DNA from: Promethearchaeota archaeon
GTDB lineage: Archaea > Asgardarchaeota > Lokiarchaeia > Sigyniarchaeales > SOKP01
Direction: 5' to 3'
Assembly (NCBI GenBank): GCA_019058245.1
Contig: JAHPZJ010000015.1
Coordinates: 32,001 to 96,000 of the forward strand
Length of the DNA stretch: 64,000 bases
The notes below the pieces were generated by a model. The model made no database searches, was not told the DNA's origin, and was given only the letters and a program-made list of their open reading frames with translations. Shown piece by piece: positions 20,107-25,700 of the stretch (position 1 is its first letter; each line of letters starts with the position of its first letter). Position numbers and translations under genes: made by a program.

Positions 20107-20562
20107 TTATTCCTCAAAAAAAGCCATAGTACTTTTACTTTCTTCTACTTTTACTGATATTTTTTTATTTCTATATATTTCTTTTAATTTTTCATGGATA
20201 TATTTTGCAAGAAGCTCGCTTGTTGTGGCAGGTAAAGGTAAAAAGAAAACATCCTCTCGAGGAAAAACATATCTTTTGTTTGATCCAATAATTTCTATGG
20301 AATCTTTCTCCTCCCGTATTTCTAATTCATCGGATTTTGTCGGTATTAAAACATAATGATCCATAGGTTTAATTATAGAGATTAAATTTTCCTTTAAATC
20401 AATAAAATCTACAACAAAATTATTTTCATTAAGCTTATCACTTATTTCAACAGATACATAATAGTTATGGCCATGCAACCTTGTACATTGAAGTGGTTCT
20501 TTTAAAAAATGACAAGCACTAAATTTAATTTCTGATGATTCGACAAATACTTTGAATCCCAT
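20107..20562 (-). CDS. queD: 6-carboxy-5,6,7,8-tetrahydropterin synthase
   Basis: FSACHF, CTRLHGHNY, DH, TTSELLA, VEES motifs. Confidence 0.85.
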   Translation of the reverse strand: MGFKVFVESSEIKFSACHFLKEPLQCTRLHGHNYYVSVEISDKLNENNFVVDFIDLKENLISIIKPMDHYVLIPTKSDELEIREEKDSIEIIGSNKRYVFPREDVFFLPLPATTSELLAKYIHEKLKEIYRNKKISVKVEESKSTMAFFEE

Positions 20563-20782
20563 AAAAAAATGCCCCCACCGTATTTTTTTTGTTTTTACTA
20601 TTTTTGTATTGTAGAAGCGCTTTGGTATTTTTATATTTTATGCTTAGATACAATAAATATAAAAGAAGATTTCATAAAAATAAGTCATACAAAATAAACT
20701 ATAAAATGTAAAAAAATAAATTATTCTAAGATTCAAATCTAGATGAGTATCATCTTATGAAAAAAATAAAAATGTACTTATA

Positions 20783-22351
20783 ATGAAAAACAAGAAATTA
20801 GCAATTACCGGTGCCAATGGATATTTAGGAAAACATACAATAAAAGCAGCAATTCAAAAAGGATGGGAAGTTGTTGGAATTGTGAGACGAGATGATGCCG
20901 CTAAAGAAGTGGAAAACCTAGGTGCTAAACCAGTGATAATCAAGGATTTTTTAATAGAACCTTTGAAAAATGCGATAACAGGGTGTAAAGCAGTCTTGCA
21001 TTTTAGAGGAGTTGTGTGTGGTTCTAAAGAAACTTTTGAAAGAGTTAATATTCAAGGTATGCGTGTTTTAGTTCAAGCAGCTTTAGAAGCAAAAGTATCT
21101 AGAATAATCTTTCCTTCAGGTTTGGGCGTTGATAAGTATGGAATAGAAGAATGGGCTAATAACGCATATTTCCATTCTAAGAACATGGCTGAACAAGTTC
21201 TTAGAAATGGAAGTGTTCCTTATATAATTTTTAGACCTTCCTATATTTTAGGTCCTGAAGACGAATTAATTCCAGAATTAATTGAACAACTAAGAACAGG
21301 TATAGTTCAAATTGCTGGAAATGGCCAAACACCTATGCAACCGATTTTTGTCAAAGATGCAGTTGAAGCATTTTTAGCAGCTGCAGATGGTATTGGGGAA
21401 AATAATCAAATATTCGATCTTATTGGCTCGAAAATAATAAATATGTTAGAATTAATCGAAATGGTATTAAAGAATATGATTGAATTAGGATTTAATATCC
21501 CTCAACCACGTATCTATAATATAAGATTTGAAAATGCTCCAGAACAATTAGGAATATGCAAAGAAATGATTGATGTAATGAGATGTGATATTACTTCAAA
21601 TGAAAATATTGTTTCTAAAGCTTTAAATTTTAAATTATCAGACCTAGAAAAAGCAATAAAAGCTGCTATAGTCGCAAAAATGTTTCCAAAAGTAAAAGAA
21701 AACAATAAAAGGGGAATTTTATTGTTATCGGGAGGTATTGATTCTGTTGTTGCACTTTATTGGGCACTTCATAATGGTTATGAAATAATAGCACTTTCAT
21801 TCAATTATAATCTCCGACCAGAACAAGAAAAAAAAGCAGTTAAAAAGATAACTGATAACCTGAATATTAAATTAATCGAAGTTCCATTACAGTATATTAA
21901 GGAAGCAATAGATTTACGAATAGAAGGATTTCCCATTCCCTCAGTGATTCAAGCTCCTGAAGGATATATACCATCCCGAAATCTTGTCTATTATTCTATT
22001 GCATCATACTTTGCTGAAATCTATGGTTGTAATTTTATAATCGGTGGACATATCTCAATAGATCCGATTAAATTTCCTGATGCTGATCCAATCTTTTTTA
22101 AATCATTAGAGCAATTAGTCAATAAAGGAAAACATAACAAAGATAAAAGTATCATAAAAATTGTATTACCTCTTTCAAAAATGAATAAAATTGAAGTCAT
22201 TAGCTTAGGGAATGATTTGAATGTTCCTTTCAATTGGACTTGGAGCTGCTATAGTGATGGGGATCAACCATGCGGTAAATGTTCTTCTTGTCGAAATCGA
22301 GACGAGGCTTTTAATAATTTAAATTATTCTCAACCAAAATTTTCTTTATAA
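20783..22351 (+). CDS. queC: Fusion of atypical SDR/NAD-dependent epimerase domain and 7-cyano-7-deazaguanine synthase
   Basis: N-terminal TGANGYLG and YxxSK; C-terminal LSGGIDS, PSRN, TWSCY...CGKCSSC. Confidence 0.85.
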   Translation: MKNKKLAITGANGYLGKHTIKAAIQKGWEVVGIVRRDDAAKEVENLGAKPVIIKDFLIEPLKNAITGCKAVLHFRGVVCGSKETFERVNIQGMRVLVQAALEAKVSRIIFPSGLGVDKYGIEEWANNAYFHSKNMAEQVLRNGSVPYIIFRPSYILGPEDELIPELIEQLRTGIVQIAGNGQTPMQPIFVKDAVEAFLAAADGIGENNQIFDLIGSKIINMLELIEMVLKNMIELGFNIPQPRIYNIRFENAPEQLGICKEMIDVMRCDITSNENIVSKALNFKLSDLEKAIKAAIVAKMFPKVKENNKRGILLLSGGIDSVVALYWALHNGYEIIALSFNYNLRPEQEKKAVKKITDNLNIKLIEVPLQYIKEAIDLRIEGFPIPSVIQAPEGYIPSRNLVYYSIASYFAEIYGCNFIIGGHISIDPIKFPDADPIFFKSLEQLVNKGKHNKDKSIIKIVLPLSKMNKIEVISLGNDLNVPFNWTWSCYSDGDQPCGKCSSCRNRDEAFNNLNYSQPKFSL

Positions 22352-22462: not shown

Positions 22463-23119
22463 ATGACTGAAACTGAAGATTTGCCTGATGTAGAGGATTA
22501 TCAAGACATTATTGTAATATGTCCAAAATGTAAAACTAAAAAAGAATTAAAAATCCCTACCAAGATTATTAATCAAGCAAAGCAATTAACAACAGTTTCT
22601 ATCCCTTCAGGAACAGTTTGTGAGCATAGTTTTCAATCTTTCGTAGATAAGAACTTTAAAGTAAGAGGATATCAGACGGTAGATTTTGAATTCTCTCATA
22701 TGGAATTTTATGAAAGTAGAGATATTCAATCATCGGAATCAGATGATGTAATTGCTCAATTAAGTTCTCAGCAATTATTTCAAGATATTATTAAATTATT
22801 GAGAAGTTTTGTGGATGATAAAGAAATTCTCGGAAGTGGTATATTTACGGTGGATGGTCATATTCTCTTTTCATCACTTCCAAGTAATACACTCTTTTCA
22901 ATAATGAAAGAATTCGAAGTGAGGAGCAAGAAGAAATTAAGCAGCTTAAAGAAAATGTACCTTGAGCTTGAGAACGATCAGAAAATTTGTTCTAATTATA
23001 TTGAAATACAAGATATTCAATTAGCAATTGTCTTATTTTTTTCTCAATCTGTAAAACTTGGTATGGGAAATTTGTATCTTAATGACCTAGTAAAGAAAAT
23101 TAGAAAATTGGAAAATTAA
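22463..23119 (+). CDS. Zn-binding N-terminal domain plus roadblock/profilin-like domain protein
   Basis: CPKC...CEH; C-terminal ILGSGIFTVDGHILFSSL...VKLGMGNL resembles roadblock/GAF-like folds. Confidence 0.5.
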   Translation: MTETEDLPDVEDYQDIIVICPKCKTKKELKIPTKIINQAKQLTTVSIPSGTVCEHSFQSFVDKNFKVRGYQTVDFEFSHMEFYESRDIQSSESDDVIAQLSSQQLFQDIIKLLRSFVDDKEILGSGIFTVDGHILFSSLPSNTLFSIMKEFEVRSKKKLSSLKKMYLELENDQKICSNYIEIQDIQLAIVLFFSQSVKLGMGNLYLNDLVKKIRKLEN

Positions 23120-23249: not shown

Positions 23250-24089
23250 ATGGATCTTCAGAAAATCAAAGATAAAATGATTCAGGACTTACACGAGCAG
23301 ATCCCTGAAATAAACGATGAAAATATAAAAAGTTTTTCTGAATTACCAAGTAAAAAAAATTCTGTAATTAGTCTAGCTTTTAATAAAAAACCTTCAACAT
23401 TGCCACAAGAAGTAGTGGTTAAAATATTTAATAATAAGAATTTTGCTAATGAAATAAATATATTAACTAGATTAAAAAATCAAAAATTTCAAGTGCCAAG
23501 TATTTTATTTTTTCAAAAACCCTATTTAATCCTTGAAAAAGTTAAGGGCACTAATTTATGTGATTTTATTAATGATAAATTAAAGGGTGCTCAACAATTG
23601 GAAGATTTGGATCTTGCTGTAAGAAACCAGATTATTAACAGTATAGAAAAACTAGCTGAATTTCTTGCTCAATTCCACGAAAAGAATTTTGTAAGAAAAG
23701 TAATAAAATCAAAAATGAAATTCGTTCTATGTAAAGGAGATACAAGATTGAGAGATTTTATTTATGATTTTACTAATGATGTTATTTATGCTCTTGATTT
23801 TGAAGATGCTTATGAAGGAAATCATATGGACGATTTAGCATGGATTTGTACTGCTCTTCTCGATACTAACCCTGGAATTTTTGAAATGGAAGAACCTAAA
23901 CATAAAGTTGACCTAATCAATAAATTCTTGAGAAAATATTACCGTATAAATCATAACTTTCCTTTTGATTTTAACTACCTAGCAGAAAAAATTATAGAGT
24001 ATTTGAATATTGTCATTGAAAGACGAGATTTACATTATGGCATAATAAGTAAAGAGAAATTAATAAACAATATTTCAAAAGAGATTTAG
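23250..24089 (+). CDS. Protein kinase-like/APH-family phosphotransferase
   Basis: VVKIF, E..IL, LAQFH, KGDTRLRDF (catalytic loop), LDFED, DDL. Confidence 0.7.
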   Translation: MDLQKIKDKMIQDLHEQIPEINDENIKSFSELPSKKNSVISLAFNKKPSTLPQEVVVKIFNNKNFANEINILTRLKNQKFQVPSILFFQKPYLILEKVKGTNLCDFINDKLKGAQQLEDLDLAVRNQIINSIEKLAEFLAQFHEKNFVRKVIKSKMKFVLCKGDTRLRDFIYDFTNDVIYALDFEDAYEGNHMDDLAWICTALLDTNPGIFEMEEPKHKVDLINKFLRKYYRINHNFPFDFNYLAEKIIEYLNIVIERRDLHYGIISKEKLINNISKEI

Positions 24090-24185
24090 TTTTTTTTTCA
24101 TACTTTCTAAAAATCAAAATTTAATAATGCACACACTATTATTTTATAAAAATTTAATAAAACTTTTTTTAAAGGTGTAATAAAT

Positions 24186-24935
24186 TTGAGCACTTTAACA
24201 GATGCTAAATCTAGTCTGAAAAAAATTATGTCAATTATTGAAGAATTAAATGGATTAAATTCCGATTCAATTCCTAAACTTCAAACTCAACCAACTAATC
24301 TGCTCGAACAGATAGGAAACCTTGAAGAAGCTAAAGCTAGTGACCAAAATTCTATTGAAGCTAATGATGATGAAACTAATTCATTAAAAAATAAAATTTC
24401 TCAAAATCAACGAGATATTGCTTCTTTGGAAGAAAATAATACTGAATTGACAACTCAACGTCAAGCACTCCTTGATAAAATTCAAGATACTCAAAATGAA
24501 CTAAATGAAACTCAAACAAAAATTACAGCACGAAGAGAAGAATTAGCAGCTCGTAGCAGCCGATTGGCTGAGTTAGAAAATAGACTTTTAGAATTAAAAG
24601 ATCTTCAAGATAAATTTGATAATAAAATGAAAGAACAAGAAACTCAATTGCAAGAAGAATATAATAAAAAAGAAAACTTCAGTAATTCATATGCTATGCG
24701 AGCAGCTGCAATGAAATCTTTAATTAAGGCAGGATATATTCAATCACCACAACTAAAGGTGATTAACTCATTAGTGCCTCAAACAACTTTAGAAATAAAG
24801 GGTTTAGTTTCAGCTAGTGGTTTAAGAGAAGATGTATTTAGAAATATAATTGTTAAAATGATTCAAAAGAATGGACCACTCGAATTTGATGAGGGAACTG
24901 GGACAGTTACATTAAAGGAGGAGGTAGATTTCTAA
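24186..24935 (+). CDS. Coiled-coil protein with C-terminal winged-helix-like domain (subunit 1)
   Basis: About 150 aa heptad region, C-terminal ...GPLEFDEGTGTVTL wing; SD AAGGTG before TTG. Confidence 0.7.
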   Translation: MSTLTDAKSSLKKIMSIIEELNGLNSDSIPKLQTQPTNLLEQIGNLEEAKASDQNSIEANDDETNSLKNKISQNQRDIASLEENNTELTTQRQALLDKIQDTQNELNETQTKITARREELAARSSRLAELENRLLELKDLQDKFDNKMKEQETQLQEEYNKKENFSNSYAMRAAAMKSLIKAGYIQSPQLKVINSLVPQTTLEIKGLVSASGLREDVFRNIIVKMIQKNGPLEFDEGTGTVTLKEEVDF

Positions 24936-25663
24936 TGGGCTCACAAGAAATTCTAGCGTTAATAGAACAATTTGAAACTGCTTATGATACCTATTGGCAA
25001 GTTCTGCAAAAACGTAATGAAGAAGTTCTCTCTCAATTAAAGGAAGCATGGCGATATATGCAAGCAGAACAAAAAGAAGAAGAGATAACAAAAGAAAAAT
25101 TATCTGCACAAAATTCGGAACTAACAGAATTAAGAACAAAATCAGAAGAATTGGATAAATCAATTGAAGGATTAAAGGCAAAAAAAGATGAATTAAATTC
25201 AAAAATATCTGAATTAACTAATACCTTGGAAACCAGCGTTAACGATTTAAAAAAACCCTCTTTTGAACTTACACAACTTGAGGAAAAACTTGCAGCCGTA
25301 AATGAAAAAATTACCGTGAAAGAAGAAGAAAAAACTGTAATGGATCAAAAGACAGTTGAAAATGAAAACCGAGAAGTAGAATTAAAAAACACCTATCAGA
25401 AAAAGATGGACGAATTAGAAGCAAAAATTGATCAATTGAGGCAAGAAAACTTTTTTACTTCCTTTTTAATCGAAAATTCGGACGAGGAAATTCATGAAGT
25501 TGATATTCTCGCTACAATTATGGAAAAGGGGGAAGCTAAATTAGATGATTTAAAGAAACTTCTTGATGTTCCACCAATAATGGCTGTTCGCACTATAAAA
25601 CAGTTAGCTGTTAAGGGAATTCTCAATCTCGACGAAAATAGTGGGAAAGTAACATTACCTTAA
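24935..25663 (+). CDS. Coiled-coil protein with C-terminal winged-helix domain (subunit 2)
   Basis: Heptad region, then ILATIMEKGEAKLDDLKKLL...IKQLAVKGILNLDENSGKVTL; TAATG overlap, SD GGAGGT. Confidence 0.72.
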   Translation: MGSQEILALIEQFETAYDTYWQVLQKRNEEVLSQLKEAWRYMQAEQKEEEITKEKLSAQNSELTELRTKSEELDKSIEGLKAKKDELNSKISELTNTLETSVNDLKKPSFELTQLEEKLAAVNEKITVKEEEKTVMDQKTVENENREVELKNTYQKKMDELEAKIDQLRQENFFTSFLIENSDEEIHEVDILATIMEKGEAKLDDLKKLLDVPPIMAVRTIKQLAVKGILNLDENSGKVTLP

Positions 25664-25667
25664 ACAG

Positions 25668-25700
25668 TTTTTTTTTATTTGTTTATTTTTATTTTTTTAA
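25668..25700 (+). terminator. Oligo-T archaeal terminator after the coiled-coil pair
   Basis: T-rich tract immediately after the stop codon. Confidence 0.45.

Follow-up and report, generated by a model that had tools for sequence, protein, structure and literature searches.

A paired coiled-coil and winged-helix protein family of Asgard archaea predicted to form a heterodimeric two-headed rod

Introduction

What is made by two adjacent archaeal genes whose products, nearly equal in length, each combine a long coiled coil with a winged helix (wH)? This question is raised by a locus of a Promethearchaeota archaeon (contig JAHPZJ010000015.1), analysed here within a window of 64,000 nucleotides, in which the two genes, named A and B, follow a kinase-like gene. 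The original prediction for this locus held that A and B arose by an ancient duplication and form a 1:1 parallel heterodimer with paired heads, possibly phospho-regulated, and Hop2-Mnd1, Ska1 and CdvB were named for comparison. Two-headed coiled-coil rods that are obligate heterodimers are characteristic of the eukaryotic machines for chromosomes, recombination and trafficking, and to our knowledge they are rarely documented in prokaryotes.

Results

Organization of the locus and architecture of the proteins

The stop codon of A shares its last base with the start codon of B, as had been described, and the two genes are probably translationally coupled (Table 1). The same -1 overlap was found at most loci of the family to which the window belongs and in a closed genome of 4,324,194 bp. 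The statement that both genes have strong Shine-Dalgarno sequences was correct for B (GGAGGT) and slightly overstated for A, where the motif (AAGGTG) is moderate. A T9 tract behind the B stop codon is consistent with a terminator shared by A and B, and a second one right after the kinase gene, together with the TTTTATAA box upstream of A, suggests that A-B is transcribed separately from the kinase gene. The box is retained in two congeneric genomes (L002 and L010), which is a weak indication because the region is AT-rich.

Table 1. Positions in the window of the genes and candidate signals of the A-B locus.
Feature	Position	Strand	Description
Kinase-fold gene	23250-24089	+	ATG start, 279 aa; APH/Kdo/RIO-like, with KGD for HxD and DFE for DFG; lineage-specific neighbour
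T9 tract right after kinase stop	24090-24098	+	Candidate terminator between kinase and A-B
TATA-like box TTTTATAA 5' of A	24142-24149	+	Candidate promoter of A-B's own
Shine-Dalgarno of A, moderate	24172-24177	+	AAGGTG, 8 nt spacer
Gene A	24186-24935	+	TTG start, 249 aa; N-terminal helix, ~150-residue heptad rod, basic neck helix, C-terminal wH
Shine-Dalgarno of B, strong	24916-24925	+	GGAGGT at 24920-24925, 9 nt before ATG, within the last codons of A
TAATG stop/start overlap of A and B	24933-24937	+	A stop TAA at 24933-24935, its last base being the first of the B ATG
Gene B	24935-25663	+	242 aa; ~170-residue helix, acidic neck, C-terminal wH
T9 tract after B stop	25668-25676	+	Candidate archaeal terminator of the A-B transcript

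AlphaFold2 models agreed with the proposed architecture of two similar-length proteins, each with a long helix and a C-terminal wH. The A model (mean pLDDT 87.7) comprises helices of residues 2-23 and 29-181 and a wH of residues 188-243, and the B model (mean pLDDT 83.9, with just 57-70 in the head) a helix of residues 3-171, a neck helix of residues 173-180 and a wH of residues 186-240. Both heads consist of three helices and a C-terminal beta-hairpin and are superposable on solved wH domains, which confirmed them as winged helices, and their C-terminal motifs (DEGTGTVTL in A, DENSGKVTL in B) are present as originally quoted.

Pairing of the two chains

Chain pairing was assessed from the charges at g and e' positions in 16 lineages (14 families and two paralogous pairs), with heptad frames assigned from hydrophobicity alone. 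The mean charge product of cognate A-B partners was -6.4, compared to 0.02 ± 0.93 for permuted partners (p = 5e-5), +0.25 for AA and -1.1 for BB, while shifts of 7 and 14 residues gave -1.4 to +0.4 and the best antiparallel register -1.8. Among 133 position pairs, only A-g/B+5 and A-e/B-5 stood out (-3.5 each; the next, -1.2), which is the signature of a parallel, in-register coiled coil. The window's own pair scored -12 for AB, +2 for AA and -6 for BB. The result was repeated more weakly in 12 further A-B pairs, with -3.25 in register against -1.5 to +0.1 when shifted, and the signal was missing in three of the 12. In addition, the ungapped hydrophobic profiles of A and B correlated best at offset 0 (r = 0.75), with a period of 3.5.

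Rod length, taken from the chain start to the conserved Pro before the head, averaged 185.9 ± 1.3 residues for A and 185.7 ± 1.7 for B at a mean pairwise identity of 24-26%. Where the length differed, it had usually changed in both chains (221/228, 254/261, 167/160, and 178/177 residues), and the matching was broken in two pairs, 190/171 and 187/141, the latter a degenerate paralogue. The fixed length was not taken as a "molecular ruler", since changing the length of a heterodimer needs two matched indels, and this alone could freeze it. The neck is basic in A (+2.4) and acidic in B (-4.1).

Complex prediction lent the heterodimer weak support, with a score of 0.58 for A-B and 0.00 for the best control, contacts agreeing by at least 98% between runs and a partner pLDDT of at least 85. 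The mark used was reached by 58 of 80 solved pairs and by 2 of 110 mismatched ones, and scores up to 0.60 at the mark came from only seven of the 80 solved pairs and from both mismatches. Judged by the co-variation, A and B very probably form a parallel, in-register heterodimeric coiled-coil rod. The parallel heterodimer of the original prediction was thus supported; besides the strict 1:1 composition predicted with it, the g-e' pairing also fits A2B2.

Paralogy and related families

The sequences also support A and B as paralogues from an ancient duplication, as had been proposed. Pairwise BLAST being weak (E = 0.002, in the rod only), the paralogy is based on profiles and a tree. Comparison of the A and B profiles by hhalign gave 99.8% over 246 columns and 98.2% for the heads alone, so that the likeness goes beyond mere heptads. 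In the head tree (79 columns, midpoint root), A formed one group (99/91), and A and B together were split from two families named C and D (99/95).

These undescribed families are the nearest relatives of A and B, having the same neck-Pro-wH head and an hhalign value of 96% to both. Family C (G000:C16:13000-13689; L071:1000-1689) is a single gene for a coiled coil and a wH, with a highly conserved head and no Pfam or NCBIfam match, and was detected in 93 of 121 Asgard genomes, among them genomes without the A-B pair. It is more universal than the pair and apparently undescribed, and probably forms a homodimer. Its rod length varies freely (109-276 residues), whereas the A and B rods are nearly fixed, and it provided the best A-head match in three of five genomes without the pair. 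Family D (G000:C20:97435-98430; L072:935-1930), also a single gene, encodes proteins of 225-660 aa with a coiled coil and a C-terminal wH across Asgard; a DDRGK motif in its wing was dropped from consideration, being present in G000 only and unconserved. That a homodimeric ancestor duplicated and then turned asymmetric to give A and B is reasonable but unproven.

Several variants of this architecture were recorded. A protein of 210 aa (G000:C31:22280-22909; L073:780-1409) has a longin-like N-terminus, a short helix and a C-terminal wH, which presumably recalls the layout of NPRL2/3. In some Lokiarchaeia (L063, L064, and L212), a second A-B pair with longer chains (284/289 and 313/322 aa) follows an ORC-CDC6-like AAA+ gene (PF24389 in L063 and L064) and lies between longin-type genes. 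A B paralogue at L065:5970-7436 has a shortened rod, an acidic linker and a C-terminal helical domain of ~80 aa without a Pfam match, and this domain recurs in four proteins of G000 (C29:687, with repeats; C24:75836; C29:41153; C17:109210). Tandem A-B-A-B arrays occur in family f14 (L048 and L079), and two separate A-B pairs in each Atabeyarchaeia genome (L041-L044). An in-frame A-B fusion of 491 aa without the last strand of A (L239:74-1549; P0420) lies on a single 2-kb metagenome contig and is possibly an assembly artefact.

Distribution among Asgard archaea

The B-head profile had matches in 156 of 301 Asgard genomes, including 47 of the 90 good ones, and in 15 of 30 families. In 14 families A lies directly upstream of B, always in the same order and with gaps of -11 to +29 nt, a recurrence that is beyond chance and shows the pair to be syntenic across Asgard. 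This arrangement was found at every locus where the contig permitted inspection, and A also adjoins the most divergent B matches from a profile search of 1.84 billion proteins. The full-length matches of that search were all A- or B-like; most were nameless and all the named ones belonged to Asgard, and phage records and IMG/VR contained no A-B match. As far as tested, the family is Asgard-specific. No eukaryotic descendant was found, and no description of the family was found in the literature, of which coverage was incomplete.

Carriers of the pair include Odinarchaeum yellowstonii (WEU40272.1), Baldrarchaeia, Gerdarchaeota, Hodarchaeales, Kariarchaeaceae, Heimdallarchaea and both Atabeyarchaeia. 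The closed genome of 4,324,194 bp, which has the pair and no kinase, matches in size Promethearchaeum syntrophicum MK-D1, with a reported genome of 4.32 Mb (PMC11316595). No pair was detected in Lokiarchaeum ossiferum (closed genome of 6,035,313 bp; PMC9834061), Freyarchaeia (also a closed genome), Jordarchaeales, Borrarchaeum or Asgardarchaeum, nor in any of the 76 genomes of one further family (f9), which is probably Thorarchaeia, judging from its size and its lack of Vps28. Where single genomes of pair-bearing families had no pair (G132, G156, G153, and G013), its neighbours were missing too or the contig ended there, so several of these absences are probably assembly gaps. The occurrence of the pair on the two main branches of Asgard and its several losses suggest that the A-B complex is ancestral in Asgard and dispensable.

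Genomic neighbourhood

The kinase-like protein, whose homologues are 278-279 aa long, matched APH/Kdo/RIO profiles weakly (APH, E = 6e-5), the nearest profiles being those of small-molecule kinases. The gene is directly upstream of A on the same strand only in three genera of the window's family (g1, g2, and g4), and was not adjacent to the pair in g3, g6, family f2 or any other family. Homologues were detected in the window's family and in f14, there on contigs other than those of the pair, and none was found in families f5, f7, f15, f16, f17, f23 and f24, all of which carry the pair. One genome (G113, 100% complete) is without the A-B pair and has kept the kinase, downstream of which lies a different gene. 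The kinase is a neighbour and not a component of the module, contrary to what had been suggested.

Upstream of the kinase, the window contains a gene for 218 aa (22463-23119) with an N-terminal Zn-ribbon (weak CpXC match) and a C-terminal part that is roadblock/profilin-like by eye; among the loci read, it adjoins the kinase solely in the window's genus. At 20107-22351, an NAD-dependent epimerase-like domain and a QueC-like domain are joined in one fusion, which is divergent from a QueD/PTPS-like gene, and by their motifs these genes probably belong to the preQ0 (archaeosine) pathway.

Clustering of neighbours at 40 loci revealed nothing common across families except generic transporters and enzymes, and no DNA-metabolism neighbour. 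Archaellin (3 of 80 genomes) did not track the pair, and Vps28 (66 of 80) was present irrespective of it. ScpB occurred in 56 of 76 genomes, with pair-positive families lacking it and pair-negative ones having it. DprA, detected in 11 of 76 genomes, did not track the pair either; its counts were 9 of 35 among the pair-negative genomes and 2 of 41 among the pair-positive ones, in one of four families tried and among kin that are not independent. With no conserved neighbours and no co-occurrence with ScpB, Vps28, DprA or archaellin, the predicted role in segregation, recombination or division is a guess.

Discussion

As A and B are without catalytic or membrane motifs, a passive tether or spacer is the most likely function, and a spacer of ~26 nm would be the simplest role of the complex. 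We propose, with a rough probability of 0.42 for the whole, a heterodimeric rod acting as a passive tether with a DNA-binding B head. The co-translated chains would zip into an obligate parallel, in-register coiled coil ~26 nm long (170-180 helical residues × 0.148 nm), with g-e' salt bridges along the rod, and the basic neck of A facing the acidic neck of B, governing partner choice. Neck pairing would juxtapose both wH heads at one rod end, where they, chiefly that of B, may bind DNA, and the conserved N-terminal helices may attach to a partner or to another rod. The outcome would be a chromosome-tethering or DNA-bridging factor resembling Hop2-Mnd1 in action and opposite to it in polarity. 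The complex would be accessory, since whole lineages and one cultured species are without it.

A DNA ligand is favoured by basic residues on the helix-turn-helix and by weak matches to regulator profiles. The B head conserves E188 (invariant), K207, K208, P213-P214, R219, K222 and K227, the five basic residues being kept in 70-93% of rows, and the MarR profile weakly matched 27 of 40 B heads (17-20 bits; cut-off 24.6) and TrmB 20 of 40 (14-16 bits; cut-off 25.6), with no match for A. Against this step stand the acidic rods, the single conserved basic position of the A head, which conserves little outside its core, and the lack of DNA-metabolism neighbours and of ScpB or DprA co-occurrence. The net-neutral heads (A -0.2, B -0.5), the conserved acids of the wings and the Pro-Pro with which the B recognition helix begins also count against it, and favour a protein ligand. 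It is possible, if unlikely, that the heads of the same heterodimeric rod bind protein, as an adaptor keeping a protein complex, filament or membrane system at a distance. Winged helices that bind protein are found in CdvB, ESCRT-II, RPA32C, PCI subunits and cullins. Among PDB sequences, the A head best matched the cullin-2 wH (E = 1e-4), shape matches included PCI-domain clusters (TM 0.25-0.26), and the long-rod paralogues are flanked by longin-domain genes and an AAA+ gene. Foldseek gave no match at E ≤ 0.001 for either model, and full-length PDB profile searches with A and B returned coiled-coil noise alone.

The heterodimer may also be the unit of a larger structural assembly, either an A2B2 dumbbell of ~50 nm joined through the N-terminal helices or an intermediate-filament-like polymer, which we consider improbable. 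Over the first 45 residues the hydrophobic pattern is dense and conserved and the heptad frame is shifted, the A model breaks after helix 2-23, and the rod is of fixed length and acidic on its outside, all of which would suit such an assembly. However, no rod-end motifs or linkers of intermediate-filament type were seen, matches to crescentin, vimentin and myosin were generic coiled-coil noise, and the rods have no tropomyosin-like charge period of 19.7 or 39.5.

Hop2-Mnd1 (PDB 4y66) is built like A-B from two paralogous chains, similar in length to A and B, that pair in parallel as a coiled coil and have both wH domains at the same end, and sequence co-variation indicates a parallel paralogous heterodimer for A-B as well. 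The Hop2-Mnd1 chains, 20% identical, have N-terminal wH domains, three kinked leucine zippers and a capping bundle, and their juxtaposed wH pair, with an eleven-residue basic patch, binds DNA (PMC4402518); in A-B, by contrast, the wH forms the last 60 residues in both models, the rod is modelled as single, continuous and unkinked, and the net-neutral heads have five conserved basic sites on B and one on A. The Pfam profiles Mnd1 (PF03962) and TBPIP (PF07106) gave no match at the A-B locus at E ≤ 1 and were outside the top 25 families for 80 A/B head sequences. With the polarity reversed and the family profiles unmatched, A-B was rejected as a member of Hop2-Mnd1. It is likewise very improbable that A and B are distant homologues, or forerunners, of Hop2-Mnd1 that act with RadA in strand exchange. 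The juxtaposed wH pair, the occurrence of A-B in Hodarchaeales, Kari-, Gerd- and Heimdallarchaea, a faint A-head match to Mnd1 (E = 0.079) and the DprA counts would favour this descent, but Mnd1 ranked after cullin, MarR and Lrp, and the DprA pattern carries the restrictions given above.

Spc24-Spc25 and similar kinetochore heterodimers are paralogous parallel rods with paired C-terminal heads and possible N-terminal tetramerisation. The heads of Spc24-Spc25 are RWD domains, whereas those of A-B are winged helices, and no sequence link was seen. CdvB (PDB 2xvc) resembles A-B in that a wH, potentially a protein-binding one, follows the helical body at the C-terminus, but its five-helix ESCRT-III fold with a linker (PMC12818579) differs from the single continuous helix of A and B, which extends over 150-170 residues with no break in the heptads, and the wH match reached only E = 0.16. 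An assignment of A-B to CdvB/ESCRT-III was rejected on the grounds of no Snf7 family match, no ESCRT gene neighbourhood and the independence of Vps28 from the pair. The Ska1 family was absent among the listed Pfam matches and the top fold matches of the A/B heads. A relation to Hop2-Mnd1, Ska1 or CdvB, raised by the original prediction, is not supported beyond the generic wH fold. With SMC, Rad50 and myosin coiled coils (28-31 bits against cut-offs of 567-729), from which the database label "chromosome segregation ATPase" stems, A-B shares heptad composition alone; no Walker A/B motif, hinge or hook is present in A or B (242-249 aa), and the label is wrong.

It is highly improbable that A and B form homodimers independently of each other, or that they are ordinary regulators of the MarR/TrmB kind with long dimerisation helices. 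The weak profile matches of the B heads and the single-gene family C, itself probably a homodimer, would agree with this, but the charge code is specific to cognate AB partners, with AA and BB near zero, and A was directly 5' of B wherever it could be looked for. A-B was rejected as a MarR/TrmB regulator because the profile scores are beneath the curated cut-offs, as they are for ArsR, IclR and Z-alpha, and A-B differs from all these families in its 186-residue rod, its heterodimer and its short acidic wing. A single phospho-regulated module of kinase, A and B is hardly credible, since the same-strand adjacency in three genera is set against the pair-bearing families without an adjacent or detectable kinase, the kinase without the pair in G113, the T9 tract between the genes and the likeness to small-molecule kinases.

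On the available sequences, A-B is well supported as an ancient and, as far as tested, Asgard-specific heterodimeric two-headed rod and a candidate tether, with homology to eukaryotic systems unsupported. A further reading, which we regard as doubtful, is that a two-headed 26-nm tether, probably ancestral in Asgard and kept in Heimdallarchaeia and Hodarchaeales, the lineage closest to eukaryotes, would link the ligand of its heads, DNA or other, to a cytoskeletal or recombination machine, and would serve in prokaryotes as the functional equivalent of eukaryotic two-headed rods such as Hop2-Mnd1 or Spc24-Spc25. Besides the correction of the database label, the pair offers a small and soluble target of just two proteins, and two cultured Lokiarchaeia, Promethearchaeum syntrophicum, which probably has it, and Lokiarchaeum ossiferum, which is without it, provide a natural contrast. 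For the Asgard archaea, the finding points to an obligate heterodimeric rod that would have been built early through duplication within a wider coiled-coil and wH superfamily, and whose register and length have been kept at ~25% identity.
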